Shown: positions 23,903-46,464, numbered from the stretch's first letter. The stretch: 64,000 bases of DNA from Candidatus Omnitrophota bacterium (GCA_030650425.1 JAUSED010000008.1:4554-68553); one strand, 5' to 3'. Numbers and translations: made by a program. Notes: generated by a model from the sequence alone, not told the origin.

Positions 23903-26695
23903 ATGCAGAATGAATTTATTATTATCCGCGGGGCTAAAGAGCACAATTTAAAGAATATAAACCTTAAACTTCCCCGTAATAAACTGATCGTGGTCACCGG
24001 TTTATCCGGTTCAGGTAAATCCAGCCTCGCCTTTGATACAATTTACGCCGAAGGCCAACGCAGGTTTGTGGAAAGCCTCTCTAGTTATGCCCGGCAATTC
24101 TTAGAGAAATTACAGAAGCCGGATATAGAATACATATCCGGCTTATCTCCTGCTATTGCTATTGAGCAGAGGTCTGCCGGTTCCAATCCTCGTTCCACGG
24201 TGGCAACGCAAACCGAAATCTATGATTATTTAAGGATTCTTTTTAGCCGTATTGGCAGGGTATTTTGTTACCATTGCCAAGAGCCAATCCAGAGGCAGAG
24301 CGCGCAGGAAATTATCGAAAAGATCGTCTCTCTGCCGGCAGGGATAGATATCCAGATTTTGGCTCCGCTGGCGCGGGGAAAAAAGGGCGAACATAAGGAT
24401 ATATTATCCGGAATTCAGAAATCAGGATTTACGCGGGCGCGCGTTGACGGAAAGGTTTATGAATTACCCGTAAAATTAAAATTGGCTAAATATAAAATGC
24501 ATAACCTGGAAGTAGTGGTGGACAGGCTCACTCTTAGGGAAGGGATTAAAAATCGGCTTACGGATTCAGTCGAGACCGCGCTCAAGGTTGGCAAGGGCAT
24601 AGTTATTATTAGCCGGTTGAACCCGCCAACAGATTTAGTTTTTAGCGAACAATACGCCTGCGCTAAATGCGGGGTAAATTACGCGGAGGTTGAGCCGCGT
24701 ATTTTTTCTTTTAATTCTCCTTATGGAGCTTGTCCCGAATGTAATGGCTTGGGGACAAAAATTAAATTTGATTCCGATCTGGTTATCCCCGACAGGAGTA
24801 AATCGATAAACGAAGGCGCTATTGCCCCGTGGAAAAGAGGCGGGAGGGGTTATATCCTTTACTATCGCTGGCTGATCCGGGAATTGGCCGCGCGGCTGCG
24901 CTTTAATTTAGATACCCCGTTCAATAAATTATCCAAAGAAAATCAAAACGCGATCCTTTATGGCTCGAAAGAGTTTATTGGCAATAAACCTTTTGAAGGG
25001 GTAATCCCGCATCTGGAAAGATTATTCCGCGAATCAGATAGCGATTACCTGAAAGAAGAGATAACTAAGTTTATGACCAGTTCAGCTTGTCCGCTATGTA
25101 AAGGCGCCCGGCTCAAGAAGGAGAGCCTAGCGGTGAGGATTAGCGGGAAGAACATCTGGGAAGTTAGCCGGATGTCCATTAAAGAAGCGCGCCATTTTTT
25201 TAATCATCTTGAATTAAACGCCAAAGAAAAACTGATTGCTTATCAGGCGCTCAAGGAGATCATCCAAAAGTTAAGATTCTGTGTTGATGTCGGCCTCGAC
25301 TATCTTACCTTGGATAGAAAGAGCTCGACTCTTTCCGGAGGAGAGGCGCAGAGGATCCGTTTAGCTACTCAGGTTGGTTCAGGCCTGGTCGGAGTTTTAT
25401 ATGTCTTGGATGAGCCGAGTATCGGGCTGCATCAACGGGATAATGATAAGCTGCTGGCTACACTTAAGTCATTGAGGGATTTAGGGAATACTCTGCTGGT
25501 GGTTGAGCATGACGAATCAACCATTCTCAGCGCGGATTACGTGGTGGATTTAGGCCCGGGCGCAGGCAGGCATGGAGGCGAAGTGGTTTTTTCAGGAGTA
25601 AAAGAAGAGCTGTTAAAAGACAGGCATTCTTTGACCGCTAAATATTTACGCGGGGAATTAAAAATCGATTTACCGCAAAACAGGAGAAGCTGGCGTGACA
25701 AAAAGATGTTGGAGATAAAGGGAGCCAGCGAACATAATCTTAAGCATATCGATGCCAAATTTCCTTTAGGGATTTTTATCGGGGTTACCGGCGTATCCGG
25801 TTCAGGCAAATCCACTCTCGTTGATGAAATATTATTCCGGGCGCTCTCTCAAAGGCTTTATCGCGCGAAAGAAAAGCCCGGAGCCTTTAAAAAGATTACC
25901 GGTGTAGAATTTATTGATAAAGTGATTGTGGTGGATCAGTCGCCAATAGGCCGAACTCCCCGCTCTAACCCGGCTACTTATACGGGAGTGTTTAATTATA
26001 TCCGCGATATCTTCGCCCGGCTTCCTGAGTCGCGCGGCCGGGGTTATCAACCCGGAAGGTTCTCCTTTAATGTCAAAGGCGGCCGCTGCGAGGCATGTAT
26101 GGGCGATGGGATAAAAAAGATCGAGATGCATTTTTTGCCCGATGTCTATGTTAAATGCGATATCTGCAAGGGCTTAAGGTTTAACGAGGCAACTTTAGCC
26201 ATAAAATATAAAGGCAAGTCTATCGCCGACGTACTGGAGATGACCGTAGAAGAGGCCCGGGAGGCCTTTAATAATATCCCGGCTATAAAAAATACGCTTG
26301 CTTACTTATTCGATGTTGGTTTGGGATATATCCAACTCGGCCAATCCGCGACTACCTTATCCGGAGGAGAAGCGCAGAGGATTAAGCTTTCCAGCGAATT
26401 GAGCAAGCGCGCGACCGGCAACACACTTTACATCCTTGATGAGCCGACCACGGGCTTGCATTTTGCCGATGTGGCTAAATTAATCAATGTCTTGCAGAGG
26501 TTAGTCGATAAGGGGAATACGGTGATTGTTATTGAACATAATTTAGAGGTGATTAAAAGCGCGGATTATATCATTGATTTGGGACCCGAAGGCGGGGATA
26601 AAGGTGGAGAGTTGGTTGCCTCAGGCAGCCCGGAAGAAATTATCCGGAATCAAGACTCCTACACAGGCCAGTTTCTTAAAAAAATATTGCTATGA
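23903..26695 (+). CDS. uvrA: excinuclease ABC subunit A
   Basis: 930 aa; two ABC ATPase modules (GLSGSGKSSLAFDT, GVSGSGKSTLV) and zinc-finger Cys clusters. Confidence 0.93.
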   Translation: MQNEFIIIRGAKEHNLKNINLKLPRNKLIVVTGLSGSGKSSLAFDTIYAEGQRRFVESLSSYARQFLEKLQKPDIEYISGLSPAIAIEQRSAGSNPRSTVATQTEIYDYLRILFSRIGRVFCYHCQEPIQRQSAQEIIEKIVSLPAGIDIQILAPLARGKKGEHKDILSGIQKSGFTRARVDGKVYELPVKLKLAKYKMHNLEVVVDRLTLREGIKNRLTDSVETALKVGKGIVIISRLNPPTDLVFSEQYACAKCGVNYAEVEPRIFSFNSPYGACPECNGLGTKIKFDSDLVIPDRSKSINEGAIAPWKRGGRGYILYYRWLIRELAARLRFNLDTPFNKLSKENQNAILYGSKEFIGNKPFEGVIPHLERLFRESDSDYLKEEITKFMTSSACPLCKGARLKKESLAVRISGKNIWEVSRMSIKEARHFFNHLELNAKEKLIAYQALKEIIQKLRFCVDVGLDYLTLDRKSSTLSGGEAQRIRLATQVGSGLVGVLYVLDEPSIGLHQRDNDKLLATLKSLRDLGNTLLVVEHDESTILSADYVVDLGPGAGRHGGEVVFSGVKEELLKDRHSLTAKYLRGELKIDLPQNRRSWRDKKMLEIKGASEHNLKHIDAKFPLGIFIGVTGVSGSGKSTLVDEILFRALSQRLYRAKEKPGAFKKITGVEFIDKVIVVDQSPIGRTPRSNPATYTGVFNYIRDIFARLPESRGRGYQPGRFSFNVKGGRCEACMGDGIKKIEMHFLPDVYVKCDICKGLRFNEATLAIKYKGKSIADVLEMTVEEAREAFNNIPAIKNTLAYLFDVGLGYIQLGQSATTLSGGEAQRIKLSSELSKRATGNTLYILDEPTTGLHFADVAKLINVLQRLVDKGNTVIVIEHNLEVIKSADYIIDLGPEGGDKGGELVASGSPEEIIRNQDSYTGQFLKKILL

Positions 26696-29097
26696 AAATA
26701 AGGGACCGTTTCTATTTTTCCCTGGTAGGAGACATTTTCCTTTGCGTCAGAAAGGGACATTTTCCTTTTGAAGTTCTAGTTAGAGCCCTGACGGAAAGTG
26801 TCCCTTTCTGCAAAGGTTGGAAAGTGTCCCCTACTGCGCCTAGAAACGGTCCCATTTTTTTTCTATTCGTTATTACGTTGGTATTGCTGCCTCTCTTTAG
26901 CCTATCCGCCGATACTTCAGCAGGTAAGGAAGCGGAAACATTCTTTATGGCCCAAAAGGCCTTTGAGGATGGTTTTTATGACGCGAGCCTCGGTTTTCTG
27001 GAGCGTTTCCTGAAAAATTATCCGGATTCCGCTAAGGCCATAGAAGCGAATCTGCTGGTCGGTGAATGTTATTTCCATCAGCATAAGTTTACTGCCGCTT
27101 TAGCCAAGTTCGAAGAGCTTTTAAAAGATCCTCAATCCAAAAGTATTAGAGATGTCCTTTACTATTGGATGGCTGAAGTTAATTTCAAAGGTGATAATTT
27201 TACTCAGGCTTCTTTATATTACAAGAATATTATTCAGGAATTTCCTGTTTCTGCTTACGCCCCCGCGGCGTATTATTCTTTAGGCTGGTGTTTATTTCAG
27301 GAACATAGATTTAAGGACGCGATCGGTTATTTTCAGGCCTTGATTAAGAAGTACCCTCAAGAACCCCAAGCTAAAGATGCCGGTTTTAAAATTATCGAAT
27401 GCCTGTATAACCTAAAAGATTACGCCCAGCTAAAAGAAAGAATAAATTCAAACATCGATGTCTTTCCCAAAGATGCCTTGCGCGTGGCCTACCTTTATTT
27501 TTATTTAGGCGAAGCTGATTATTATCTGGGAGATTTTGACGGGGCGCTCGCTGCCTATGCTAAAGTTTTAACGAACAGCCCCGACGCTAAAATGCAGGCG
27601 CTGACTAAACTGGATTTAGGCTGGGCATACCTTAAATTAAAACGCTACCAAGAGGCCGAAGATGTTTTCTTAGGGATAAAACAGAGTAATTTGGAGAAGG
27701 GAAGCCGGGATATCCTGTTATTGGGCAGGGCTATTGCTTCAATGGAGACTAACCGGATACATCAGGCTAAAAAACTATATGAAGAATTGTCAGTTCAGGC
27801 CAGCGACCCCTTGATTTCAATCCAAGGTTTGATCGGCAGGGCGGATGCCCTTTATAATTTGGCTGACTACGCGGAAGCCTCTAAGGCTTACCAAGAGGCA
27901 TTGGCCAAAGTAAATCTAAAAGGAGCCTATCGTCAGATAATCGATAAATTATATTATAATTTAGGCTGGTCTTTGCTGAAACAAGGGTATATCCTTGAGG
28001 CTATTACAGCGTTTCAAAGGGTGATTGATTTAAGCAGCGACGCTACATTTAGAGCAGGCGCTCTTTGTCAGATAGGAGATGCCTATCAGGAGGGGGCGGA
28101 TTATAAAAAAGCCGAAGAGGCATATAAATTATTATTGAAGGAATACCCGGGTTCTCATTATAACGATTATACATTATATCAATTGGGTTCAGTCTGTTTA
28201 AAAGAAGCAAAAATCAATGAAGCAATTTTAAACCTGATCCTTTTAGAAAAGAAATTTTCTTCATCCAAATTTTTGGATGATGCCGCGTATACCCTTGGTT
28301 TAGCTTATTTCAATAAGCAGGATTATAATTTGGCGAAGGAGACCCTTAAAAAATTTCAGGACATATTTAAGAATAGCGATTTAAGGCCAAAGGCGCTTTA
28401 TCTTTTGGGAAATTGCCTCTATAGCTTGGGAGATTATCCTTCGGCTATACAGGTTTTCAAAGAAATCCCGAGGTTTACCGGTATTGAAGCTGAATTGGAA
28501 GAGAAAGCTGAGTACGGGGTGGCGGACGCGCTTTATCAGATGGGGCAGGAGGAAGAGGCGCTTGCGCGATTTAAGGCTTTACGCTCTAAATATCCCGGCT
28601 CAAGCCTTGCCCCGGATATCCTCTGGTGGTTGGGGAGCTATTATTATCAGCATAATGAAGTGGAGCTGGCGCAGAGGTATTTTTTGTCGCTTATACAGGA
28701 TTTCCCTAAGAGTAATTTATTAGCCGACGCTTATTACGGCTTAGGCCTTACCTTAATGGATGGGCCAAAGGCACAGGAGGCTCTGGATAATTTTAGAAAG
28801 GCGCTTGCTTTAAATAATCCCGAGATTAAGCCTAAGGCAGCGGTAGCGATGGCTGAAATCGAAGAGGCGAAGGGGAACATTGATCAGGCAGCTAAAGATT
28901 ATCTGGAAGCGATTAAACTATCCGGACAGGATAATAAACTTACCGCGACAGTTCTTTTAAGGTTAGGTAGAATCTATGAAGATAAGAATAATATTCAGGA
29001 AGCCTTAAAGGTTTATTCCAAGATATTAGATATGAATATAGCGGAGTCCAAATACGCCGAAGAGCGGATTGCCAGCCTTAAGCCCAGCGTTAAATAA
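26692..29097 (+). CDS. large tetratricopeptide-repeat protein, signal/anchor after residue ~55; start uncertain
   Basis: ATG 26692 overlaps uvrA stop; first ~54 codons run through composite repeat 26702-26853; hydrophobic IFFLFVITLVLLPLFSLSA then many TPR units. Confidence 0.6.
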   Translation: MKIRDRFYFSLVGDIFLCVRKGHFPFEVLVRALTESVPFCKGWKVSPTAPRNGPIFFLFVITLVLLPLFSLSADTSAGKEAETFFMAQKAFEDGFYDASLGFLERFLKNYPDSAKAIEANLLVGECYFHQHKFTAALAKFEELLKDPQSKSIRDVLYYWMAEVNFKGDNFTQASLYYKNIIQEFPVSAYAPAAYYSLGWCLFQEHRFKDAIGYFQALIKKYPQEPQAKDAGFKIIECLYNLKDYAQLKERINSNIDVFPKDALRVAYLYFYLGEADYYLGDFDGALAAYAKVLTNSPDAKMQALTKLDLGWAYLKLKRYQEAEDVFLGIKQSNLEKGSRDILLLGRAIASMETNRIHQAKKLYEELSVQASDPLISIQGLIGRADALYNLADYAEASKAYQEALAKVNLKGAYRQIIDKLYYNLGWSLLKQGYILEAITAFQRVIDLSSDATFRAGALCQIGDAYQEGADYKKAEEAYKLLLKEYPGSHYNDYTLYQLGSVCLKEAKINEAILNLILLEKKFSSSKFLDDAAYTLGLAYFNKQDYNLAKETLKKFQDIFKNSDLRPKALYLLGNCLYSLGDYPSAIQVFKEIPRFTGIEAELEEKAEYGVADALYQMGQEEEALARFKALRSKYPGSSLAPDILWWLGSYYYQHNEVELAQRYFLSLIQDFPKSNLLADAYYGLGLTLMDGPKAQEALDNFRKALALNNPEIKPKAAVAMAEIEEAKGNIDQAAKDYLEAIKLSGQDNKLTATVLLRLGRIYEDKNNIQEALKVYSKILDMNIAESKYAEERIASLKPSVK
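26702..26853. repeat. composite element with TIR GGGACCGTTTCTATTTTT ... (CT)AGAAACGGTCCC enclosing four GGGACAxTTTCC-type cores
   Basis: Immediately after the uvrA stop; overlaps the 5' part of the TPR-protein ORF. Confidence 0.75.
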
Positions 29098-29142: not shown

Positions 29143-29170
29143 TTGACAGAAGTCATATTTATTATAAAAT
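29143..29170 (+). promoter_or_regulatory. sigma70-like promoter (TTGACA-16-TAAAAT) for the small-gene/pil operon
   Basis: 19 nt upstream of ATG 29189. Confidence 0.35.
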
Positions 29171-29188: not shown

Positions 29189-29395
29189 ATGATTACAGAA
29201 ATAGGCATCGTTGCCGGAGAGATATGGCATTTTTTAGACCAGCATGGAGAGGTTAGCTTAGTTGAATTGGTTAAGGGTATAGATAAACCTCGGGATAATG
29301 TGCTGATGAGTTTGGGTTGGCTTGCCAGAGAAGGGCATGTACTTTTACAGCAGGCAGGGAATGACTACAAAGTATCTTTAAGAAAAGATGCCTAA
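29189..29395 (+). CDS. small winged-helix-like protein (68 aa), unknown function
   Basis: ATG 29189 with GGAGGAG RBS; sigma70-like promoter 29143-29170 upstream. Confidence 0.55.
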   Translation: MITEIGIVAGEIWHFLDQHGEVSLVELVKGIDKPRDNVLMSLGWLAREGHVLLQQAGNDYKVSLRKDA

Positions 29396-29795
29396 TTTTA
29401 AAACCAATGGAAAAGGCGTAGTTCTGCTTATTGTCCTAGGGGTGGTACTAGTGGTTACTTTTTTGGCCGCAGCTATATTGACGATTATGTCCAGCCATTC
29501 CCGTTTGACACACCATCAGGTCAGCCGGATTAAAGCTTATTATACCGGAAAAGGAATGATGAATTATGTCTTAGATAAAATGAGGACAGATTCTGTTTGG
29601 CAGCCGCACGCTACAGAGACTCACTATGCTTGTTATCGAGGTTGTATAGATGCCACTGCCACTGCCACTGTTGGTTTAGATATGCCTGTCGTTGATGCCG
29701 ATATCCTCTATAAGGTTCAAGTAACGATCTATCCCCTTAATGTGGATCCCAAGGGTAAAATAAATATAAAGACCGACTATACCTATACTCTGTAA
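29388..29795 (+). CDS. PilX-like minor pilin / pilus-associated membrane protein
   Basis: 135 aa; N-terminal GKGVVLLIVLGVVLVVTFLAAAIL resembles the PilX N-terminal domain; immediately upstream of the pil operon. Confidence 0.5.
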   Translation: MPNFKTNGKGVVLLIVLGVVLVVTFLAAAILTIMSSHSRLTHHQVSRIKAYYTGKGMMNYVLDKMRTDSVWQPHATETHYACYRGCIDATATATVGLDMPVVDADILYKVQVTIYPLNVDPKGKINIKTDYTYTL

Positions 29796-29801
29796 AAACT
29801 A

Positions 29802-29880
29802 GGGACCGTTTCTATTTTTCTAAAGTAGGGGAGGTTTAAACCTCCCCTACCGTCTTAAAAATAGAAACGGTCCCTTTTTT
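29802..29880. repeat. composite element: TIR GGGACCGTTTCTATTTTT / AAAAATAGAAACGGTCCC enclosing the 26-bp perfect palindrome GTAGGGGAGGTTTAAACCTCCCCTAC; followed by TTTTTT
   Basis: Hairpin plus T-run could act as an intrinsic terminator after the PilX-like gene. Confidence 0.75.
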
Positions 29881-29962
29881 GCTGATTAGCGGTAAGTCTA
29901 AGGAAGTCTATATAAGAAAACACTTGACAAACTAAGACTGTTATGTTTTAATTAAGTTCGTT

Positions 29963-30154
29963 ATGAATCGACTGATCGACATAGACGAATTAGCGGATTA
30001 TCTTAAGCTCAAAAAGCAGACCATCTATAACTGGTTGAGCCAAGGCAAGATCTCCGGGATTAAAGTTGGCGGTGTGTGGAGGTTTGACCGTAAGGATGTG
30101 GATAGCTGGCTGCAAAGCAGCAAACGTCTCTCCAGGACAGGAGCGAACCAATGA
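29963..30154 (+). CDS. small helix-turn-helix DNA-binding protein (excisionase/AlpA-like HTH_17)
   Basis: 63 aa; IDIDELADYLKLKKQTIYNWLSQGKISGIKVGGVWRF typical of excisionase-family HTH; overlaps pilM start. Confidence 0.6.
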   Translation: MNRLIDIDELADYLKLKKQTIYNWLSQGKISGIKVGGVWRFDRKDVDSWLQSSKRLSRTGANQ

Positions 30155-31701
30155 GTGATTTAGGCATATATTTTGGGCCCAAATCCATCGATGTATCAGA
30201 GGCCAAGGGAAGAAAGCTGGTCAATAATCTGCAGATTCCCGTCTTCGGAATTATCGGTAATGAATTGGATGAAAAAGTCCCTACCGAAATAAAATTAGTC
30301 GCTGCTTTTAATGACGCCTTTAGAAGGAATAAGATCCAAGCTAAAGAGGCGAACCTTTGCCTTTCCGGTAAAGATCTGATTATGAGGACGTTTGAGATCC
30401 CCTTACTTCCTAAAGAGGAGCTTCATGCTGCGATAAACTTTGAAGCCAAGAAGTACATACCTTTTAAGGTCGAGGAGCTTATTTCAGATTATCAGGTTGA
30501 GTTGGATAAGCTAAGCCGGACGAATATCGTCCTTTTTATGGGGATCAAAAAGGATACCTTCGATAAATATTTCTCGACTCTCAATCAGTTAAATATCAAG
30601 ATAAACTCAATAGAATATGCCGGGTTTAGCGCTTTAAGGATATTAAAACTGGCGCGGATCAATGAAAGCGGAGTTATAGGCATACTTTGTTTTGACTCAC
30701 GTGGCGAAGACGAGATAAATTTTACGGTTTTAGATAACGGTTTTCCGTTATTCAGCCGGGATATCAATTTAAGCAGCGTTCCTTCGGATTTAGACCAGGC
30801 TCAGGGAGAGTCTGGTCTTTCTCCGGATAAATTGAAGGCAGAGGTGCGTGTATCTTTGGATTATTATCACCGTAAATTCCCAGCCAAAGCCATAAAAAAT
30901 ATCTTTGTCGTTTCCAGCCCTGACTGGCGCCAGGAACTCGAGGTTTTTATCAATGATTTAGGCCTTCCCAACAAGTTTATCGATATCTCTAAAATAATCA
31001 ATAAGCCGATGGCTTTTTCTTCGGGTTTGGTGAAAAGCTATAGCGCGGCGATCTCCAAGGCCATTCCGATTAAGGTTAGGGTTAATTTAATCGAGAGTAA
31101 GGCCAGGGCGCTTAAGCCCGCGGCAGCCGCTGCCGGACTGGATTTAACCTCTTTATTAAAGAATATAAAATTAGACTTTCGCGTGATTACCGCGGGGGTT
31201 TTGCTTTGCGCCGCCACCTTTATCTATGGAATTTTTCAGCTAGCGCCTTTAAAACAGAATTTAGGTCAGGTGGTCAGCAAAAGGAGCAAGGTAGCTAAGA
31301 TCAGCCCTGACTCCAGCTATGCGTCGCTCAATATTGCCAGTTTAAAAGATAAAAAGACTTTGGATAATCTGGATAACCTGATTAAAAAACAATTATACGT
31401 TACCGAAGTATTGAATATTGTTCCTCCTTCTCTTCCGCGAGGGGTATGGCTGACTAAGTTTTCTTTGGCTAAAAGGGAAGAGGATAAAAAAGAGCTTACC
31501 TTGGCGGGTATGAGTTATTTGGGAGAGAGCAGCAATGAATTTCAGGCGATAAATAAGTTTTTTAATAATTTAAGGGATAACCCGGAATTTACCAAATATT
31601 TTAAGGATATAAGCATAGTTTCGATTGATCATACTCAATTTCTTCAGGCAACGGTAACCACATTTTCCATATCCTGCAAGACTTACCAAGAGGCTAAATA
31701 A
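30151..31701 (+). CDS. pilM: type IV pilus assembly protein PilM fused to PilN
   Basis: 516 aa; N-terminal actin-like PilM domain (~330 aa), then TM segment FRVITAGVLLCAATFIYGIF and a PilN-like periplasmic domain. Confidence 0.75.
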   Translation: MSDLGIYFGPKSIDVSEAKGRKLVNNLQIPVFGIIGNELDEKVPTEIKLVAAFNDAFRRNKIQAKEANLCLSGKDLIMRTFEIPLLPKEELHAAINFEAKKYIPFKVEELISDYQVELDKLSRTNIVLFMGIKKDTFDKYFSTLNQLNIKINSIEYAGFSALRILKLARINESGVIGILCFDSRGEDEINFTVLDNGFPLFSRDINLSSVPSDLDQAQGESGLSPDKLKAEVRVSLDYYHRKFPAKAIKNIFVVSSPDWRQELEVFINDLGLPNKFIDISKIINKPMAFSSGLVKSYSAAISKAIPIKVRVNLIESKARALKPAAAAAGLDLTSLLKNIKLDFRVITAGVLLCAATFIYGIFQLAPLKQNLGQVVSKRSKVAKISPDSSYASLNIASLKDKKTLDNLDNLIKKQLYVTEVLNIVPPSLPRGVWLTKFSLAKREEDKKELTLAGMSYLGESSNEFQAINKFFNNLRDNPEFTKYFKDISIVSIDHTQFLQATVTTFSISCKTYQEAK

Positions 31702-31702
31702 T

Positions 31703-32218
31703 ATGGCGCAGTCAGGGCAAACCGATAAATACAGGAATATGCTGATCAACGCGGCGATCATTACGGTAACCTTGATTATCGCCTACAATCTATATCAGGC
31801 CAGCCTTTCCCAGGCCCAATCTTTAAAGGCTAAGATCAGCGAAGAAGAAAAGAAGAATATTGAACTGGAAAAGATGGGTAAGCTGGAAAAAAGGATCGCT
31901 GCGTATCGATCGCTGCTGGTTGTAAGAGAGACGAGCGCGGTGATGAGCGATATTAGCGATATTGCTAAAGAAACCAAGGTAAAGGTTTTATCGGTTAAGC
32001 CGTCCCAAAAGGAATCAGCAGCCGACTATGCTAAGGCAATTTTTGAGGTTACTCTTAATGCCGGCGGATATGATCAATTGGCTAAATTCATTAACGCGAT
32101 AGAAGCTTATGAAAATGTCTATATGGTCGAAGGTATGGATATCAGCAGCCAGCCCGGGCTTGATCAGTCCGGATTGACGGTTAATTTGCGGATTAGCTCT
32201 GTCTCGGCGAATCAATGA
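31703..32218 (+). CDS. pilO: type IV pilus assembly protein PilO
   Basis: 171 aa; single TM then coiled-coil, position after PilMN. Confidence 0.65.
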   Translation: MAQSGQTDKYRNMLINAAIITVTLIIAYNLYQASLSQAQSLKAKISEEEKKNIELEKMGKLEKRIAAYRSLLVVRETSAVMSDISDIAKETKVKVLSVKPSQKESAADYAKAIFEVTLNAGGYDQLAKFINAIEAYENVYMVEGMDISSQPGLDQSGLTVNLRISSVSANQ

Positions 32219-32724
32219 TAAAAATGCGCAAAATTTCCAGATTAATAATTTTTTGCTTAGGGTTATTCATTACGGCTTCGTTTTACCCGGAAGCATTTGC
32301 CGAGGTGGATTGGAACCTTAAGGCGCCGAAGGAGCTGGAGGAAGAAGAGATCATTAAAAAGGCGGCTCCGTTAGAAAACGCCCGGAAGAAGGATGAGACC
32401 ATCCGTCCCAAAATAGAATATAACAGCCAAGGCTTAAGAGACCCTTTTCGGCCTTTAATTACGGAGAAAAAAACCGAGAGCGCCGCGGTGAGCCGGGAGC
32501 CGGAAATAAAACCGCTCCCTGTTTTAACGGTGCAGGGTTTAATTTGGGGAGGTATTTTCCCTCAGGCGATCATCAATAATAAAGTGGTAAAAGTAGGAGA
32601 CGCGATAGGAGAGGTCAAGATAACCGAAATAAGTAAAGAAGGCGTAACTGTGCTCTTCGCTAATATGGAGCATAAATTGTCTTCTCCGGCTGTGACGGGT
32701 CCACAGCAAAAAGGGAAGAAATAA
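32215..32724 (+). CDS. pilP: PilP-like pilus assembly lipoprotein
   Basis: 169 aa; signal peptide, RDPFRP motif and C-terminal beta domain (VKVGDAIGEVKITEI). Confidence 0.55.
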   Translation: MIKMRKISRLIIFCLGLFITASFYPEAFAEVDWNLKAPKELEEEEIIKKAAPLENARKKDETIRPKIEYNSQGLRDPFRPLITEKKTESAAVSREPEIKPLPVLTVQGLIWGGIFPQAIINNKVVKVGDAIGEVKITEISKEGVTVLFANMEHKLSSPAVTGPQQKGKK

Positions 32725-32783
32725 TACCCCGCGCTTATAAGGAATTGCGCGGGTATGCCCTTATGGGCAAAAGGGAGGAAATT

Positions 32784-34361
32784 ATGAAAACTTATTTTAG
32801 AGCATTTGTCTTCATCTTTGTTTTAGCTAATCTTACTTTGATTCCCAAACTCAGCGCCTCTGAATACTCGCCCATATCGGAGGATAATGAAACGTCTATT
32901 TCTATGGATTTGCAGGATGCATCCTTAAAGGATGTATTGAAGATTTTATCTATCCAATCGGGCTTAAATTTTGTTGCTTCAGAGGCAGTCCAGGATAGAA
33001 AGCTAACTCTCTATATGGATAAAGTGCCTTTAAAAGAGGCGATGGATAAGATATTCAAGGCTAATAATCTGTCTTATGATTTGGATAAAGAGGCGAACAT
33101 TTTTATTGTCAATGATTGGGGGAAACCAACCACCCAGACAGTGACTAAGGTTTTTTACCTAAAGCATGCCACAGTTTCTTCCTCTTCGTTAAAAGAAGAG
33201 ATGAAGAATAATATAAGCGCTACCAGCAGTTCAGACTCTTCTTCAGAATCTTCCAGCAGCTCTTCCGGTTCATCTTCAAGCAGTAGTTCAGAAGGCGGTA
33301 AATGGAAGGCGGAAGAGGAGGCGGGGATTACTTCCGCGGTCAAAAAGCTTTTATCCAAGGATGGCTCGGTAATTGAAGATTTCCGCACCAACAGCCTGAT
33401 TGTTACGGATATACCCAGCAGGATGGAAGTTGTCAGCCAAGTAATCACTTCTTTAGATATCTCTGTTCCGCAGGTATTGTTGGAAGTGGAGATGCTGGAT
33501 GTGAGTAAAAATGTAGTTGATCAAATAGGTTTTAAATTCGGCCAAACGCCCTTTAGTGTGGCTTTAAGCGGCGCCGCGATCAGCACGGAATATCCTTTTA
33601 GCCCGGCGATGTATGCTTTTAGAAGTGTTGCCAAAACCCTTACCGCCGGATCAATCAACGTGAGCAATGGGACGAACGGCACCAGTGTTTATAATATGCA
33701 GTTAGATTTCTTAAGGACGCAGACCGATACCAAGTTTCTTGCCCGGCCCAAGATACTCACTTTAAATAACGAAACAGCCGAGGTTAAGATTACTACTGAT
33801 GAAGCTGTGGGAGTAACCAGCGTTCAGCAAGGGCAAGGGGATGCTTCTTCAACTACCGGTTCAGCGGAAAGATTTGCTACCGGGGTTACCTTAAGAGTAA
33901 CTCCTCAGATTGATTTAGAGGCCGGAGAGATTACCATGTTTGTTTATCCGCAGGTGGCTGAAGCTTCCACTACTACCGTTACTTTTACCAGTAACGGTGA
34001 AGATTTTACTTTTCATAATCCGGAAATCCGCAGCACGAAGACTACAGTGTGTGTAAAAGACGGAGAGACGGTGGTGCTCGGAGGCTTAATCCGTAACCAG
34101 AAGAGCACGATTATCACCAAACTTCCTATATTAGGAGATATACCCATACTCGGCGCGTTATTTAGGCATAAAAATCAAAGTCCCGATAATCAACGCGAAC
34201 TGTTAGTTTTTATCACTCCGCATATCGTGAAAAGTGCTAAAGCAGATACAACTCCGCTTAAAAAAACAGTTCTTCCGTTAAGAGAGCAAGCCCAAGCCAT
34301 TCCGCTCTCCCGGCAGCAAAGTATGAGCACCTATCTGAATAATTTTGAGGCTAAGCGTTAA
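32784..34361 (+). CDS. pilQ: type IV pilus secretin PilQ
   Basis: ATG 32784 after GGGAGG; signal peptide, N-domains, poly-Ser linker, C-terminal secretin domain (VVLGGLI...LPILGDIPILGALF...FITPHIV). Confidence 0.85.
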   Translation: MKTYFRAFVFIFVLANLTLIPKLSASEYSPISEDNETSISMDLQDASLKDVLKILSIQSGLNFVASEAVQDRKLTLYMDKVPLKEAMDKIFKANNLSYDLDKEANIFIVNDWGKPTTQTVTKVFYLKHATVSSSSLKEEMKNNISATSSSDSSSESSSSSSGSSSSSSSEGGKWKAEEEAGITSAVKKLLSKDGSVIEDFRTNSLIVTDIPSRMEVVSQVITSLDISVPQVLLEVEMLDVSKNVVDQIGFKFGQTPFSVALSGAAISTEYPFSPAMYAFRSVAKTLTAGSINVSNGTNGTSVYNMQLDFLRTQTDTKFLARPKILTLNNETAEVKITTDEAVGVTSVQQGQGDASSTTGSAERFATGVTLRVTPQIDLEAGEITMFVYPQVAEASTTTVTFTSNGEDFTFHNPEIRSTKTTVCVKDGETVVLGGLIRNQKSTIITKLPILGDIPILGALFRHKNQSPDNQRELLVFITPHIVKSAKADTTPLKKTVLPLREQAQAIPLSRQQSMSTYLNNFEAKR

Positions 34362-34369
34362 ATGTTCAA

Positions 34370-34424
34370 GAGAAGGTGACAGTCACGTATTTCGTGACTG
34401 TCACCTTCTCTTGCTCGCAATGAC
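34370..34424. repeat. perfect 18-bp-stem hairpin GAGAAGGTGACAGTCACG-TATTT-CGTGACTGTCACCTTCTC plus TGCTCGCAATGAC half-site, after pilQ
   Basis: pilQ/pilB intergenic. Confidence 0.7.
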
Positions 34425-34456
34425 AATATAAAAAGGTTTTCGAGTTTAAATACTCT

Positions 34457-36190
34457 ATGTTGAATAAAGGAAAATATTTAAGGTTAGGGGAGCTTTTGAT
34501 TAAAGAAGGCCTGCTCAGCGAAGTGCAACTGGAAAAAGCCATAGCCGCCCAGCGCCAGCAAGGCGGAAGGCTGGGCGAGGTTTTGGTTAAGCTAGGCATG
34601 GTCAAAGAGGATCAGATGGTCGCGGTCTTAGGCAAACAGCTGAATGTCCCGTATTTTTCTCTGGGCACAGGGATGCTTAAACCGGCAATGGATCAGGGCC
34701 TTGAGCGGCTTATTCCGCAGGATTTCGCGATGAAAAATTCCGTCCTTCCTTTGTCGCGCACTTTACGTTCCCTGACCGTAGCGATGGCTGATCCTCTGGA
34801 TTTAATCTTGGTTGATAATTTAGGCAGGTTGACCAATTGCGAAATCAATCCGGTGATTGCCACCAAATCCGATATTGTTAAGGCTGTTGAGGGTTTTTAC
34901 GGCAAGTCCGCGATGTTACAGCAGGCGGTAGAAGACTCTTATGATGTTTCGGCCGCGGAGCTGGCTTCCGCGGGTACAATGTCGGATGAGGGGACGGAAC
35001 AGGAATTAAGCTTAGATAAATTAGTTGCCCGGGCAGAAGAAGCCCCGGTGGTAAAATTAGTCGATTTGATCATCCGGCAGGCAATTGATGAGCGCGCCTC
35101 AGACATCCATATCGAACCGTTTAAGGATAAAATATCCCTAAGGTACCGTATCGATGGTAAATTATATGAAATACCCCCTCCGGCAAAGCATCTGCATATG
35201 CCGATTATTTCGCGCATCAAGATTCTTTCCAAGCTGGATATTGCCGAGAAACGGCTTCCTCAGGACGGCGCGTTGTTAGTGAAGATCGGAGAGAGGCCCA
35301 TTGATATCCGCGTTTCGGTTATTCCTACAATCTATGGCGAGAAGATAGTAATGCGGCTGCTTGACCGGAGCCAGATCTCTCTGGATTTAAATAAATTAGG
35401 CGGTGATCCCAAACAGCTGGAATTGATTCGTAAATGTATCGCTACTCCTTACGGCCTGATTTTCCTGACCGGGCCGACCGGCAGCGGAAAAACTACTACC
35501 TTATATGCCATCTTAAACGAAATAAAAAGCCCCACTAAAAATATTGTCACGATTGAAGATCCGGTGGAATACAAATTAGATGGGATTAATCAGGTACAGG
35601 TTAAGCCTGAAATCGGCCTGACCTTTTCCGCGGCCTTACGTAGTTTCTTAAGGCAGGATCCGGATATCATGCTCGTCGGGGAAGTGCGGGATTTGGAAAC
35701 TGCCCAGATCTGCGTGCGTTCCGCGCTTACGGGACATTTGGTTTTAAGCACCCTGCATACTAATGACGCTCCTACAGCCGTAAGCAGGCTGATGGATATC
35801 GGTATTGAGCCTTATATGCTCTCTTCTTCTTTGATCGCGATCATCGGCCAGCGCCTGGTGAGGAGGCTCTGTTTGGATTGCCGGGAGGCCTATGAGCCGA
35901 AGCAGGATGAACTTAAGAATATAAAGTTAAAAGCGGAATTAATTTATAAAGCTAAAGGATGCGCTAGTTGCAATAATACTGGTTATAAAGGCAGGATTTC
36001 TATTTCCGAAGTTTTGGTAGTGAACGAAGAGATCAAGAGTTTGATTACTCAGCGGGCGCCATTCCAGAAGATCAGGGATGTGGCCAAGGCCGGCGGTATG
36101 CAAACCTTATTTGACTCCGCGCTAAAAAAAGTTGAGGAAGGCGCGACTTCTTTGGAAGACGCGCTTTCCATTACCATAGGAGCGGAATAA
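34457..36190 (+). CDS. pilB: type IV pilus assembly ATPase PilB (GspE family)
   Basis: 577 aa; T2SSE N-terminal domain, Walker A GPTGSGKTTT, Asp box, His box and tetracysteine motif. Confidence 0.88.
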   Translation: MLNKGKYLRLGELLIKEGLLSEVQLEKAIAAQRQQGGRLGEVLVKLGMVKEDQMVAVLGKQLNVPYFSLGTGMLKPAMDQGLERLIPQDFAMKNSVLPLSRTLRSLTVAMADPLDLILVDNLGRLTNCEINPVIATKSDIVKAVEGFYGKSAMLQQAVEDSYDVSAAELASAGTMSDEGTEQELSLDKLVARAEEAPVVKLVDLIIRQAIDERASDIHIEPFKDKISLRYRIDGKLYEIPPPAKHLHMPIISRIKILSKLDIAEKRLPQDGALLVKIGERPIDIRVSVIPTIYGEKIVMRLLDRSQISLDLNKLGGDPKQLELIRKCIATPYGLIFLTGPTGSGKTTTLYAILNEIKSPTKNIVTIEDPVEYKLDGINQVQVKPEIGLTFSAALRSFLRQDPDIMLVGEVRDLETAQICVRSALTGHLVLSTLHTNDAPTAVSRLMDIGIEPYMLSSSLIAIIGQRLVRRLCLDCREAYEPKQDELKNIKLKAELIYKAKGCASCNNTGYKGRISISEVLVVNEEIKSLITQRAPFQKIRDVAKAGGMQTLFDSALKKVEEGATSLEDALSITIGAE

Positions 36191-36227
36191 TTATCGTACA
36201 CCTCGTAGGTGAAATAGGAGCAGGATA

Positions 36228-37475
36228 ATGGCTAAATATTCATATATTGCCCGGGATAAATCCGGAGCAAAGATTAACGGAAGCGAAGAAGGGGCGACGC
36301 AGGATGAAATCATCAACCGCCTGCAGGCAAAAGGCTTGGTAGTGGTTAACATCCTCGCTGAAAGCGCCGGAAAAGAAGCCTTAGCTCCTGCCGGATCTCC
36401 CGCGATGGTAAAAGTAAAATCCAGCCCTAAACACAATAGAATTAATAACGATGACCTTACCCTTTTTTGCCGCCAGTTAGCTACCCTGCTTGGCGCCGGA
36501 GTTACGATTTTAAAGAGCTTGGATATCATTTCACTGCAGGTTGCCAGCAAGCGCCTCTATTTGGTAATTAAGGATCTGGAGAAGAATATGGAAGCGGGAT
36601 TAAGTTTTCATGAGGCAATGGCCAAGCATCCTAAAGTTTTTCCAGAGTTGTGGATTCATTTGGTGGAGAGCGGAGAGGCTAGCGGTAATTTGGCGGTGAT
36701 CCTGTCGCGTTTAGCCAGTTACCTTGAAAGAAACGCGGCTTTTAAGAAGAAGATTGTCTCGGCATTGATTTATCCGGCGATACTTTTTATGGCAGGTATG
36801 TCCGCGCTTTTGTTTATGACGATTAAAATCATTCCTACCTTTGCCGAAATCTTTAGCGGTTTTAATATCAAGCTCCCTTTTTTAACCCTTATGTTGATTT
36901 ACGTAAGCAAGTTTATCCGGGGGTATTTCTTGATTATTATTCTTGGCATAGGCGCTGGAATTTGGTTTTTCCGCAAGTACACCTCAACTAAAGCCGGCAA
37001 GAAAAAATACGAAGAGTTCCTTTTGAAACTCCCGGTTTTAGGAGGGTTCTTCCACACTTTGGTTATTGAGCGTTTTACATCCGAGATGTCCACTTTAGTT
37101 GAGAGCGGCGTGCCGATACTTTATTCATTGGAGATAGCTGAACGCAGCGTGGGTAACCTTGTTTTGGGCGAGATTATTCGCAACATTAAGGAAGATGTGC
37201 GCGCGGGTAAGCCTTTGGGTCTCTCTTTAGAGAGGAGCAATTTCTTTGACCCGATGGCCGTGCAGATGGTTACTATCGGCGAAGAAATCGGAGAACTCTC
37301 TAATATGTTTAAGCGCCTGAATGCCTTTTATGAGGAATACTTAGACACCTTTTTAGTCCGCCTGACGTCTATGTTTGAGCCCTTTATGCTTATTTTTATG
37401 GGAGCGGTGATTGGGATAATGGTGATTGGGATGTTTCTGCCTATATTTGAGATTTCTCAGATAGGGGGAAAATAA
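36228..37475 (+). CDS. pilC: type IV pilus inner-membrane platform protein PilC (GspF family)
   Basis: 415 aa; duplicated GspF domains, 3 TM segments. Confidence 0.85.
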   Translation: MAKYSYIARDKSGAKINGSEEGATQDEIINRLQAKGLVVVNILAESAGKEALAPAGSPAMVKVKSSPKHNRINNDDLTLFCRQLATLLGAGVTILKSLDIISLQVASKRLYLVIKDLEKNMEAGLSFHEAMAKHPKVFPELWIHLVESGEASGNLAVILSRLASYLERNAAFKKKIVSALIYPAILFMAGMSALLFMTIKIIPTFAEIFSGFNIKLPFLTLMLIYVSKFIRGYFLIIILGIGAGIWFFRKYTSTKAGKKKYEEFLLKLPVLGGFFHTLVIERFTSEMSTLVESGVPILYSLEIAERSVGNLVLGEIIRNIKEDVRAGKPLGLSLERSNFFDPMAVQMVTIGEEIGELSNMFKRLNAFYEEYLDTFLVRLTSMFEPFMLIFMGAVIGIMVIGMFLPIFEISQIGGK

Positions 37476-37647: not shown

Positions 37648-37696
37648 AGTCATTGCGAGGAGCCCCTGCGTTACGTCGGGGCGACGCGGCAATCTC
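37648..37696. repeat. AGTCATTGCGAG-GAGCCCCTGCGTTACGTCGGGGCGACGCGGCAATCTC hairpin element in the pilin 5' leader
   Basis: Same GTCATTGCGAG head as 3749 and 16034. Confidence 0.6.
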
Positions 37697-37709
37697 AAAA
37701 GGAGGAGAG

Positions 37710-38090
37710 ATGAAAAGGAATAGAAAGGGTTTTACCTTAATCGAGTTGATCATCGTCATTGTAATTATCGGCATCTTGGCGGTTGTCGCTATACCAAAAT
37801 ATTTCGCTAATATTACAACTTCCCGAAAAGCCGCAACATTGCAAAGTTTGCACGCAATTAGCGAAGGCGTTAACGCGTATTTTTCAGCCACTGGAGTTGA
37901 GCTTGCAGATAAAGCAGCGGGAAGTTTCATCGAAACTACTATTGATGGGCAGGTGGTACATTCAGTTGGGTTACCAACCGGTTATAGTTACACAGCGGCC
38001 ACACATACGATTGCCTCTCCTGCGGTAACAGGATGTGGTATTTGTACAATGAATTCTCAGACAGGTGCTTATAGTTGCGCTAGCTGTTAG
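37710..38090 (+). CDS. type IV pilin (prepilin, class III signal)
   Basis: MKRNRKG/FTLIELIIVIVIIGILAVVAIP; Cys-rich C-terminus; ORF track start at 37653 is upstream of the RBS GGAGG. Confidence 0.85.
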   Translation: MKRNRKGFTLIELIIVIVIIGILAVVAIPKYFANITTSRKAATLQSLHAISEGVNAYFSATGVELADKAAGSFIETTIDGQVVHSVGLPTGYSYTAATHTIASPAVTGCGICTMNSQTGAYSCASC

Positions 38091-38109
38091 TAAATTTATT
38101 TGTTTAAGA

Positions 38110-38508
38110 ATGTTTAAGAATATAAGAAATATTGAAAATGGTTTTACGTTAATAGAATTAATAATTGTAGTGGCAATTGTGCTTGCGTTGTCAAGTATTG
38201 CTATAGTTAAGTATGGGAATATTACTGAAAAAGCGCGTTCTGCCGAAGCCTACGCGGTATTGGCTGATATTGCTGCTTCGGAGGTCAGTTATTCAATAGA
38301 ACATAATGACGCTTACACTGGAACTTGGTCAGATTTAGATAGGTATAATGCTGCGCCGGCAAGCGAGAATTTTACCTTTTTTCTTGCCGACGCGGTTAGC
38401 AGCGGGTATGTCAATGCCGCGCATATCACAGGCAGGGGAACAGTGGATTATTATATGTGCATAAGGGGAGGAGAGCGGGGGACCATCGTTCCGACAAATT
38501 GCCCATGA
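38110..38508 (+). CDS. type IV pilin
   Basis: MFKNIRNIENG/FTLIELIIVVAIVLALSSIAIV. Confidence 0.8.
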   Translation: MFKNIRNIENGFTLIELIIVVAIVLALSSIAIVKYGNITEKARSAEAYAVLADIAASEVSYSIEHNDAYTGTWSDLDRYNAAPASENFTFFLADAVSSGYVNAAHITGRGTVDYYMCIRGGERGTIVPTNCP

Positions 38509-38522
38509 GAAATGTAAAAAAA

Positions 38523-38581
38523 GGGGACGGTTCTATTTTTCCGGCGTTAGACTCAAGAAAAATAGAACCGTCCCCTTTTTT
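38523..38581. repeat. variant composite element GGGGACGGTTCTATTTTT ... AAAAATAGAACCGTCCCC + TTTTTT between pilin 2 and pilin 3
   Basis: Variant TIR (CGG instead of CCG) shared with the intragenic copy at 44280-44332. Confidence 0.7.
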
Positions 38582-38585
38582 CCAG

Positions 38586-38984
38586 TTGGCGCGGGGGTTT
38601 ACTCTCATCGAGCTTATCTTGGTGGTTACGGTGATTATTACGCTGGCTTTAATTGCTATTCCCAACTATAATAAGTCAAAAGACAGGGCGATAGAAAAGG
38701 AAGGTATTTCTAACGTCAGGCTGATAGCCGCGGCTGAGAGAATATACAAGATGGAAAGCAGCGCTAATGTTTATGTTGCTTGTGCTAATGCCACTACTTG
38801 TAATACAGCGCTTAATTTGAATTTGAACGCGACTAACTGGAGTTACAAAGTTGAGCTTGCTTCAGGTTCAGGGGTCGCGACCATAACCGCTACTGGATCT
38901 GCTGTCTCTGGTTGTAGCTATACCTTGACGAGCGCCAATTTTGATGCAGAACCAACAGTACCAGCAGGCTCAAGCTGCCCTTAG
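38586..38984 (+). CDS. type IV pilin; start ambiguous (TTG 38586, or ATG 38505 reading through a repeat element)
   Basis: ARG/FTLIELILVVTVIITLALIAIP; ATG 38505 overlaps the previous stop (ATGA) and would add 27 repeat-encoded residues. Confidence 0.7.
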   Translation: MARGFTLIELILVVTVIITLALIAIPNYNKSKDRAIEKEGISNVRLIAAAERIYKMESSANVYVACANATTCNTALNLNLNATNWSYKVELASGSGVATITATGSAVSGCSYTLTSANFDAEPTVPAGSSCP

Positions 38985-38991
38985 GAAAAAA

Positions 38992-39093
38992 GGGACCGTT
39001 TCTATTTTTCCCTGTTAGGGGACATTTTCCAACAGCCAGTAAACGCGTGTAGGAAAGTGTCCCCTTAGACTCTAGAAAAATAGAAACGGTCCC
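38992..39093. repeat. composite element (TIR GGGACCGTTTCTATTTTT / AAAAATAGAAACGGTCCC) with inner REP pair
   Basis: Between pilin 3 and pilin 4. Confidence 0.75.
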
Positions 39094-39112
39094 ATGTTTC
39101 CCTTAGCTTAGT

Positions 39113-39469
39113 ATGAATAAAAAAGCCCTTAGCTTACTAGAAATTATTATTTCCACGGTAATTCTGTCATTAGTGATTACCGGCTTGGTTAATGTTTTTG
39201 TAGCGGGGAAGCAATATATCCAGCATAGTCGTCTGCGCATGGCTGGTGGAGAGATAGGAAAGTTTTTTCTCGATCCTTTGCAGCAGTATGTCCGCCAGGA
39301 TACCTGGGATGCCAGTTGTTTTGGCACGAATAAGGTTATAGCCAATTGTCCAAATGTTCCCTCTACAAGCAACCCTTACACCACCGCTTATTCTATCAGC
39401 GACCTTAGCGCTGATACCAATATCAAGAAAGTAAAAGTAACAATCACCTGGCCCAGTCCCGGCTCCTGA
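39113..39469 (+). CDS. minor pilin / pseudopilin-like protein
   Basis: 118 aa; N-terminal LSLLEIIISTVILSLVITGLV pilin-like hydrophobic helix with Glu at +5. Confidence 0.6.
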   Translation: MNKKALSLLEIIISTVILSLVITGLVNVFVAGKQYIQHSRLRMAGGEIGKFFLDPLQQYVRQDTWDASCFGTNKVIANCPNVPSTSNPYTTAYSISDLSADTNIKKVKVTITWPSPGS

Positions 39470-39474
39470 CCCCA

Positions 39475-40111: not shown

Positions 40112-40209
40112 AAGGTGCCAGCCTACTTCTAATTTCAGGTATTTTCTTAAAAAAATTTCGTTAGATTTGCTGCCTTCATGCGTCTATTAATAGTGAGGAG
40201 GTGGTAAAT

Positions 40210-46438: not shown

Positions 46439-46464
46439 AAGCACGCTTCTTATGAAGAGTTAGA

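Follow-up and report, generated by a model that had tools for sequence, protein, structure and literature searches.

How does a type IV filament machine work when PilM and PilN, the cytoplasmic and periplasmic components of its alignment complex, are made as one polypeptide? The question is raised by a 64-kb stretch of a metagenome-assembled contig of Candidatus Omnitrophota bacterium (the window), in which the first of two pilus-type gene clusters, locus 1, contains a 516-aa open reading frame (ORF), pilMN. Omnitrophota are uncultured, mostly ultra-small, and presumed to be host-attached, with type IV pili as a main candidate for the means of attachment (PMC10066038). A preliminary description of the window had read the ORF as a complete PilM domain that continues through a transmembrane (TM) helix into a PilN-like periplasmic domain, and had placed three small regulator-like genes in front of it; all of its ORFs were found where it had put them. 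Here, we conclude with a probability of roughly 70% that PilMN is a single-chain, GspL-like alignment or platform subunit in the inner membrane, that it belongs to a self-contained filament machine conserved across the phylum, and that the promoter of its operon, P2, is regulated by helix-turn-helix (HTH) proteins.

The order of PilM domain, TM helix, and PilN-like domain within one ORF was borne out by Pfam domains and a single TM segment. In the N-terminal part, the match to Pfam PilM_2 (37 bits, cutoff 27 bits) was confined to residues 11-205, corresponding to profile positions 7-208 of 340, and NCBIfam TIGR01175 gave 53.8 bits, under its cutoff of 133 bits. The PilM encoded in locus 2 matched PilM_2 over its full length (E 3e-46) and exceeded the TIGR01175 cutoff with 171 bits; PilMN and this protein matched each other by BLASTP with E 9e-14. 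The structure of PilMN was modelled with AlphaFold2 (AF2; predicted local distance difference test, pLDDT, 77) and compared to the PDB with Foldseek. Residues 1-305 reached a pLDDT of about 80-90. The best matches were PilM structures (5eou, 5eq6, 3jc8, and 2ych, E 1e-15 to 1e-18; 5eou E 1.9e-18), followed by FtsA (E 2.7e-10) and cyto-EpsL (E 2.5e-9). By model and structural matches, the N-terminal domain of PilMN has an actin-like fold (ASKHA, FtsA-type).

The fold is PilM-like, but the domain is not complete. Compared to the locus-2 PilM, about 27 residues are missing in the region of subdomain 2B, and the model has a disordered loop at this site (residues 209-221, pLDDT <50). The three nucleotide motifs of PilM (phosphate 1, phosphate 2, and adenosine) were sought in PilMN, and none of them was intact: DIGNST is replaced by YFGPKS at phosphate 1, where Y7, F8, and G9 are invariant in the family, NIGATV by FDSRGE at phosphate 2, and SGGAS by VSSPD at the adenosine site. 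In a distant fused member with 27% identity (L085, 8001-9521), the former phosphate-1 site reads GVFWG rather than GIYFG, and the junction motif is degenerate.

The transition between the two parts retains a feature of PilN. When the locus-2 PilM and PilN sequences were concatenated, they aligned colinearly with the fused PilMN family. The end of the locus-2 PilM (…LALRA) runs directly into PilN MIEINLLPEELR, and the aligned PilMN counterpart is …KAI–PIKVRVNLIESKAR (residues 305-318). The family consensus at the junction is [KR][IVL][ND]L[LIV]x[AS][KR], in which L313 is at least 90% conserved. The window copy has VNLIE, many relatives have INLL, and L087 has PINLLKP; the proline is usually lost. 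INLLP is the N-terminal element of PilN that binds PilM (PMC4471445; also the titles of PDB 2ych and 5eou), and the alignment suggests that the PilMN junction is a recognisable relic of this docking motif. The TM helix that follows is the only strongly hydrophobic segment of PilMN and the only one with Kyte-Doolittle 19-mer windows above the threshold of 1.6.

As had been proposed, the C-terminal region is PilN-like by profile. Residues 420-510 matched Pfam PilN with 30.5 bits (E 3.7e-7; cutoff 22.8 bits), the locus-2 PilN was matched by BLASTP with E 3e-8, and the PilMN family profile matched the PilN of M. xanthus (3jc8_Na) with E 0.003. The AF2 model of the periplasmic part has a pLDDT of about 80-92. 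In locus 2, pilM (49546-50577) and pilN (50579-51178) are separate genes, as had been stated. Since they are separated only by TAA-G-ATG, that is, by a stop codon plus one base, a small deletion would give the geometry of the fusion. We infer that pilMN arose by fusion of adjacent pilM and pilN genes. The PilM domain continues straight into the former N-terminus of PilN; after it come a linker of about 25 residues that is predicted to be disordered, the TM helix, a predicted coiled-coil segment, and the ferredoxin-like domain of PilN.

The fusion had been regarded as specific to locus 1. This holds within the window, where locus 2 is split, but the fusion is not peculiar to this genome. The window's 516-aa product is 100% identical to an NCBI Omnitrophota protein encoded on a 288-kb contig. 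The top 120 database clusters all had a length of ~507-529 aa, covered the whole query, and were 46-82% identical to it. In GTDB, searched with one genome per species, 271 genomes encode a PilMN relative. Among the best 80 of these 271, residues 1 to ~516 were matched in one frame, and nearly all genomes were labelled Omnitrophota, with a few TPA metagenome-assembled genomes (MAGs) bearing other labels. A library clustered at 50% identity held 250 representatives with E<1e-30 to PilMN; the best 150 of the 250 were mostly full length, with identities down to 26%. Full-length relatives span 497-544 aa, and an alignment of 25 family members showed conservation over the entire length, including the junction. 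Two short variants were noted, one cut by the end of its contig (L088) and one with a stop within the TM helix on a contig at 2.4x coverage (L087). Judged by these comparisons, the 516-aa gene is a genuine and ancient covalent PilM-TM-PilN fusion, and its family extends across the phylum Omnitrophota.

The cytoplasmic domain of GspL lacks subdomain 2B and is not known to bind nucleotides. PilMN shares the architecture of GspL, including a neighbouring gene whose product matches PilO, T2SSM_b, and GspM_XpsM. A covalent link between cytoplasmic and periplasmic platform components is not new as an architecture, as GspL/PulL in type II secretion systems (T2SS), which corresponds to PilM plus PilN, has the same (PMC10191384, PMC4471445). 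The family models of GspL (Pfam T2SSL/GspL_C at E<=1; NCBIfam GspL at E<=0.1) gave no match for PilMN, and membership in GspL by sequence was dropped. Given the architecture and the site loss of GspL, yet the sequence of PilM and PilN and a putative relic of the PilN docking motif, we therefore read PilMN as a single-chain platform subunit.

In the mechanism that we propose, the permanent tether would replace the regulated contact between PilM and PilN. Nucleotide control of this contact would be dispensable because PilM is permanently tethered to its membrane partner; the degenerate ASKHA motifs and the largely deleted subdomain 2B are consistent with this, as in GspL. The periplasmic domain would pair with PilO from the next gene, and the PilP/GspB-like 169-aa protein would provide the connection to the secretin. 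The cytoplasmic domain would probably just dock a PilB-type ATPase that senses cyclic di-GMP (c-di-GMP) to the platform.

These putative partners are encoded together in a conserved order: UvrA, a TPR protein, a winged HTH (wHTH) protein, a PilX-like protein, an HTH_17 protein, PilMN, PilO, the 169-aa T2SSB/HR-like protein, the secretin, the ATPase with MshEN motif, PilC, and pilins. The order was kept in relatives from 69% to 26% PilMN identity. In the loci inspected, the PilO-like gene always came next after pilMN, and orthologues of the 169-aa protein matched T2SSB. The gene of the TPR protein of ~800 aa (26692-29097 in the window) invariably separates uvrA from the pilus locus (seen also in L001, L003, L085, and L086). 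Between the TPR and wHTH genes, many lineages have genes for ExbB and ExbD and two further small genes; these four are absent from the window and its closest relatives.

The ATPase aligned over its full length to solved PilB (~515 bits) and over its C-terminal part only to GspE (416 bits). The NCBIfam models gave 621 bits for PilB and 598 bits for GspE, both under their cutoffs. Residues 8-61 (34457-34640) contain two tandem RLGxxL(I/V)xxG… c-di-GMP motifs of MshEN type (NF053729, 63.7 bits, cutoff 38 bits), and c-di-GMP control of the machine is therefore predicted. PilB and GspE proteins also carry MshEN, so the motif does not discriminate the MSHA type. An MSHA-type assignment was rejected, as the secretin scored only 138 bits with MshL and about 207 bits with both PilQ and GspD. 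This secretin has N0-N1 only. A serine-rich, low-complexity insertion, SSSDSSSESSSSSSGSSSSSSS, lies inside its Secretin_N (N1) at residues ~145-190 (33170-33320). The putative major pilin has a Cys-rich C-terminal region, like T4a pilins. The pilins of locus 1 gave generic N-terminal pilin/pseudopilin matches only, none of them decisive, and neither a GspG-J nor a PilA class was assigned.

A PilB-type extension ATPase, PilC, a secretin, and prepilins are all present in locus 1, as in type IVa pilus (T4aP) systems. The retraction ATPase PilT was sought and not found in the 64-kb window. Weighing the tie of PilQ and GspD, the generic pilins, and the lack of PilT together with the PilB-like ATPase and its c-di-GMP motif, we therefore call locus 1 a T4aP-like type IV filament machine. 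Locus 2 (46037-53889) encodes a pilin, a 654-aa TPR membrane protein, two further pilins, and pilMNOPQ; no ATPase or platform gene was found near it.

It is conceivable, but unlikely, that locus 1 encodes a T2SS or another non-pilus filament machine instead, with PilMN as GspL, the 171-aa protein as GspM, the 169-aa protein as a GspB/GspC-like protein, and the 135-aa protein as GspK. A periplasmic pseudopilus would then push folded proteins through the secretin, and locus 2 would serve the true pilus. A fused protein of L type is the hallmark of the T2SS (PMC10191384), and PilMN resembles GspL in its degenerate nucleotide site and missing 2B. Furthermore, cyto-EpsL/GspL structures clearly matched the PilMN model (TM-score 0.67-0.69 normalised to the target), weak matches to GspM_XpsM, T2SSM_b, GspK, and T2SSB were obtained, PilT is absent from locus and window, and a second, canonical pilMNOPQ set is present in the same genome. 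However, PilMN matched none of the GspL models and was much closer to PilM by sequence and Foldseek E-value. The ATPase scored higher with PilB than with GspE in both comparisons, although neither NCBIfam model reached its cutoff, and the secretin, with N0-N1 only, did not favour GspD over PilQ. The Cys-rich end of the putative major pilin and the lack of a specific GspG-J assignment also argue against a T2SS. T4aP clusters are common in Omnitrophota according to a TXSScan survey that counts them there, in which PilM is not mentioned (PMC10066038).

The features of locus 1 are collected in Table 1. The three small genes at its head had been described as one regulator-like block that precedes and overlaps the 516-aa ORF. 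Two of the products are indeed HTH proteins, the 68-aa one winged-helix-like (DUF2582) and the 63-aa one of excisionase type (HTH_17; TIGR01764 E 2.6e-14). The likeness of the middle one to PilX was also upheld, but this makes it a minor-pilin-like structural or membrane protein rather than a regulator. All three genes precede pilMN; only the HTH_17 gene overlaps it (4 nt, ATGA), because 167 nt containing a hairpin and a promoter separate the PilX-like gene from the HTH_17 gene. The wHTH and PilX-like genes overlap by 8 nt and make up a bicistronic unit of their own, which has a promoter-like site ahead of it and a hairpin at its end.

Table 1. Features of locus 1 and of the PilMN protein, with window coordinates.
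Feature	Position	Strand	Basis
Promoter-like P1, TTGACA-16-TAAAAT	29143-29170	+	11/12 consensus match
wHTH gene, 68 aa, DUF2582	29189-29395	+	Pfam DUF2582 E 8e-14
PilX-like gene, 135 aa, PilX/GspK-type minor-pilin-like	29388-29795	+	NCBIfam GspK/ComGG N-termini, orthologue PilX_N matches
REP-like nested hairpin with T-run	29800-29881	+	-54.2 kcal/mol, z = -11
Tandem direct repeats GGTAAGTCTA, AGGAAGTCTA	29891-29910	+	Family consensus AAGTAAGTnTA, period 10, centred at about -61 to predicted start
Promoter P2: A-tract, -35 TTGACA (29924-29929), 17-nt spacer, extended -10 TGtTTTAAT (29944-29952)	29911-29952	+	Pattern match, conservation
HTH_17 gene, 63 aa, excisionase/BldC-type	29963-30154	+	Pfam HTH_17 E 1.8e-16
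pilMN gene, 516 aa	30151-31701	+	Pfam PilM_2 and PilN
PilMN residues 1-305, cytoplasmic PilM-like actin-fold domain	30151-31065	+	PilM_2 and TIGR01175 partial matches; AF2; Foldseek
PilMN residues 309-316 (VRVNLIES), putative INLLP relic	31075-31098	+	Alignment to locus-2 MIEINLLPE, family consensus
PilMN residues 343-367, single TM helix	31177-31251	+	Kyte-Doolittle; AF2 helix 343-376
PilMN residues 390-510, periplasmic coiled-coil helix and PilN ferredoxin-like domain	31318-31680	+	Pfam PilN, BLASTP, profile, AF2
PilO/GspM-like gene, 171 aa	31703-32218	+	Pfam PilO E 1.5e-7, T2SSM_b 7e-4; NCBIfam GspM_XpsM 1.9e-4
169-aa PilP/GspB(HR)-like protein, secretin, PilB-type ATPase with MshEN motif, PilC	32215-37475	+	Pfam/NCBIfam
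Five prepilin-type genes (major and minor pilins), end of locus 1	37653-40092	+	Pfam N_methyl

In most related loci, the wHTH gene is preceded by the arrangement AGTTGAC...TATAAAAT...GGAGG...ATGATT, and its 8-nt overlap with the PilX-like gene was present in 50 loci. The wHTH profile matched PDB 2l02 and 2l01, both uncharacterised, and no mention of DUF2582 was found in the searchable literature library. The PilX-like protein of the window weakly matched the N-termini of GspK (2e-5) and ComGG (6e-5) in NCBIfam. Eight of 34 orthologues matched PilX_N (PF14341; best E 1.9e-6), whereas the window copy did not and the orthologue in L086 did so weakly. Family members share a conserved hydrophobic helix at the N-terminus, after which comes an SRIQAYYA..AG motif; by these sequence features, the 135-aa protein is probably of the minor-pilin type that lacks Glu5.

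The hairpin downstream of the PilX-like gene was missed by a simple terminator scan, spotted by eye, and confirmed by folding. It is probably the terminator of the unit, and several relatives have other hairpins at the equivalent place. Judging from this anatomy, P1, the wHTH (DUF2582) gene, the PilX-like gene, and the terminator would form a short unit apart from the main operon. The arms of the hairpin are two copies of an 18-mer, GGGACCGTTTCTATTTTT, which belongs to a palindromic repeat family resembling repetitive extragenic palindromes (REP) and occurs 13 times in the window versus 0.01 times expected (14407, 21778/21898, 26702, 29802/29857, 37477/37557, 38992/39076, 43671, and 45748/45828). 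Most copies are inverted pairs in intergenic gaps that form long hairpins, probably terminators. A second variant of this repeat, GGGGACGGTTCTATTTTT, makes up two inverted pairs in the window (38523/38558 and 44280/44315) and reads 'KGDGSIF…KIEPSPFF' in spurious ORF extensions. Since it is also present in the equivalent Omnitrophota loci L030, L060, and L061, this element family is common to several species. Directly after the locus-1 pilins, a gene at 40201-40800 encodes a 199-aa IS200/Y1-transposase-like protein (Pfam Y1_Tnp E 2.9e-17), a possible REP-associated tyrosine transposase (RAYT) with a link to these repeats.

The second HTH protein is tied to pilMN itself. It scored above the cutoffs of Pfam HTH_17 (60.6 bits, cutoff 27 bits) and TIGR01764 (53.3 bits, cutoff 28.8 bits) and below that of NCBIfam MAD1 (71.8 bits, cutoff 80 bits). 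Its gene adjoins pilMN in 74 of 75 loci, with a 4-nt overlap in 51. The median identities to the window copies were as follows: HTH_17 80%, wHTH 78% (over 64 species loci), UvrA 76%, PilB-type ATPase 74%, PilC 64%, secretin 55%, PilMN 46%, PilX-like protein 39%, and PilO 33%. The two HTH proteins thus head the list, with a conservation no lower than that of UvrA and the motor ATPase.

The DNA upstream of the HTH_17 gene was nearly invariant over 64 species loci (taAGTAAGTnTaAGTAAGTnTATATAAAAAAACACTTGACAAnATAAnnnnnTTATGTTTTAATTAA), with 38 of ~80 promoter columns at least 90% identical. The 36-nt P2 pattern (AAAACACTTGACAAnnTAAnnnnnTTATGTTyTAAT) was matched with 0 mismatches, and no second copy was found in the window. 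The A-tract of P2 resembles a proximal UP element. Upstream of it lie two tandem AAGTAAGT boxes; the exact 16-mer of the boxes occurs once per locus and at a constant position in 44 loci. A search of the window for a second AAGTAAGT box site yielded three matches at <=3 mismatches, which is about the chance level, with 29891-29910 being the closest. An additional box ~100 nt upstream and a CCGACG element are present in most relatives. A possible third box, within the P2 spacer, was confined to L086 and a minority of loci. In the distant lineage L085, both HTH genes and the boxes are absent and the promoter is different. The start codon of the HTH_17 gene in the window lies 10 nt past the -10 hexamer (29947-29965), while the 5' untranslated region (5'UTR) of relatives measures ~40-50 nt and includes an AAGGAA Shine-Dalgarno sequence; some 30 nt seem to be missing from the window copy, which may be leaderless.

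From its anatomy, P2 would drive the main operon as a near-consensus promoter behind the two boxes near -61, a class-I activator position. HTH_17 would be the first product of this operon and translationally coupled to PilMN. Members of the Xis/BldC/MerR-like HTH_17 family bind tandem direct repeats head-to-tail. Because of this binding mode, and because it would regulate its own synthesis, the HTH_17 protein is the likeliest candidate ligand of the boxes; the DUF2582 protein would be an alternative ligand or a co-regulator. We infer that at least one of the two HTH proteins regulates P2 through the predicted boxes.

A regulatory role is not the only explanation for the small HTH proteins. They may instead be remnants of a mobile element (Xis plus wHTH) or protein-binding subunits of the machine, and the upstream DNA could be a strong constitutive promoter; we judge this improbable. 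The HTH_17 protein does belong to the excisionase family, its nearest solved relative is the Xis of a mycobacteriophage (4j2n), and it also scores on the HTH model MAD1 of a defence system. The IS200/Y1 transposase gene and the REP-like elements lie in and around the locus, the close translational coupling to PilMN would fit a stoichiometric partner, too, and in L086 both HTH genes and the core promoter are present without the upstream tandem boxes. Yet no integrase or other mobile-element gene adjoins the HTH genes. Their position and overlaps between UvrA/TPR and pilMN are fixed in 60-74 species, and vertical inheritance with the machine is therefore indicated. Moreover, at 78-80% identity they are better conserved than the structural genes, the repeats near -61 are near-invariant and occur at this site only although they are no part of a sigma-70 core promoter, and L085 lacks the boxes and the HTH genes alike.

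Some points weigh against our view of PilMN as a GspL-like single-chain platform subunit under HTH control and call for care. AF2 confidence at the INLL relic is moderate (pLDDT ~59, residues 311-320), and docking in cis is a prediction, as is the loss of ATP binding, which is deduced from the motifs. The lack of PilT in the 64 kb and the weak GspM, GspK, and T2SSB matches make the choice between a surface pilus and a short pseudopilus ambiguous. The window has neither the distal box nor the 5'UTR/Shine-Dalgarno region of its relatives, and L086 with its missing boxes, mentioned above, also counts here. Both the HTH proteins and the boxes are almost invariant, so that their proposed pairing receives no support from covariation.

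That the fusion is an artefact has next to no probability and is effectively refuted. On this reading, two distinct genes of the MAG, pilM and pilN, were merged by an error in sequencing or assembly or by an overlooked stop codon or frameshift; the window derives from a metagenome-assembled contig, and a small indel could join a pair of genes one base apart, as in locus 2. However, a single ~516-aa ORF recurs in assemblies from many independent projects, the relatives are all or mostly full length (120 of the 120 top clusters, the best 80 of 271 species genomes, and sequences down to 26% identity), the junction region is conserved among them, the two short variants that were checked result from the end of a contig (L088) and from a low-coverage truncation (L087), and full-length relatives in at least 80 species genomes rule out the sequencing error that the preliminary description had allowed for.

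The GspL-type architecture and the T4aP clusters of Omnitrophota (PMC10066038) were already known. Three things appear to be new: a large, phylum-wide family that combines PilM/PilN sequence with GspL architecture, a PilN docking motif that seems to be retained alongside a degenerate nucleotide site that is predicted to be dead, and an HTH pair with an invariant candidate operator. More speculatively, and rather doubtfully as a whole, PilMN might be a living intermediate between PilM/PilN and GspL, with the docking motif kept and ATP binding lost, and the two HTH proteins might be a phylum-wide switch that acts on the AAGTAAGT boxes at a super-consensus promoter and possibly gates host attachment. 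We know of no regulator/operator pair of this kind for a type IV filament machine, nor of any regulation reported in Omnitrophota. PilMN is a natural experiment on how GspL-type proteins may arise from PilM and PilN, and on the purpose of the PilM ATP site and of the contact between PilM and PilN. The HTH pair and the promoter/operator of ~60 bp provide a concrete regulatory hypothesis. We suggest that annotations label the family as a PilM-PilN fusion (GspL-like) and not as "PilM" or "PilN domain protein". The searchable literature library contained no natural PilM-PilN fusion other than GspL and nothing relevant on MshI.

Among known systems, the Xis/BldC/MerR-like HTH_17 proteins are the counterparts of the 63-aa protein, which matches HTH_17, TIGR01764, and weakly BldC and has candidate tandem repeats upstream of P2. 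Unlike Xis-type proteins, it is encoded without a neighbouring integrase and as the fixed first cistron of a pilus operon. The minor pilins of PilX, GspK, and ComGG type that lack Glu5 share the N-terminal hydrophobic helix and an R..QA.YAA.AG motif with the 135-aa protein. This protein is, however, far shorter than GspK (~300 aa), its C-terminal part matches no family, and its gene lies apart from the other pilin genes and is coupled to the wHTH gene.

PilMN is homologous over both of its parts to the canonical T4aP proteins PilM and PilN (P. aeruginosa, T. thermophilus, M. xanthus, and locus 2), which also provide its best solved matches (PilM 3jc8, 2ych, and 5eou; PilN 3jc8). As in locus 1, PilO, a PilP-like protein, and a secretin follow in the canonical system. 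The differences are the fusion itself, the three degenerate motifs, the deletion of ~27 residues of 2B, and the lower TIGR01175 score (54 versus 171 bits for locus 2). The top structural match, 5eou, is an engineered PilM:PilN(1-12) chimera in which the N-terminal peptide of PilN is tethered to the C-terminus of PilM, as in PilMN. In contrast to PilMN, this artificial construct was made for crystallisation, retains ATP binding, and has no TM or periplasmic parts.

GspL/PulL/EpsL resemble PilMN in that, within one chain, a single TM helix joins the cytoplasmic actin-like domain at the N-terminus to a ferredoxin-like domain in the periplasm. In both cases, a PilO/GspM-like partner is encoded alongside, and the cytoplasmic domain is devoid of 2B and of canonical nucleotide motifs. 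Compared to GspL, PilMN passes the Pfam models PilM_2 and PilN, keeps a putative INLL motif, and is accompanied by a PilB-like ATPase, in a gene order that differs from that of gspC-M operons.

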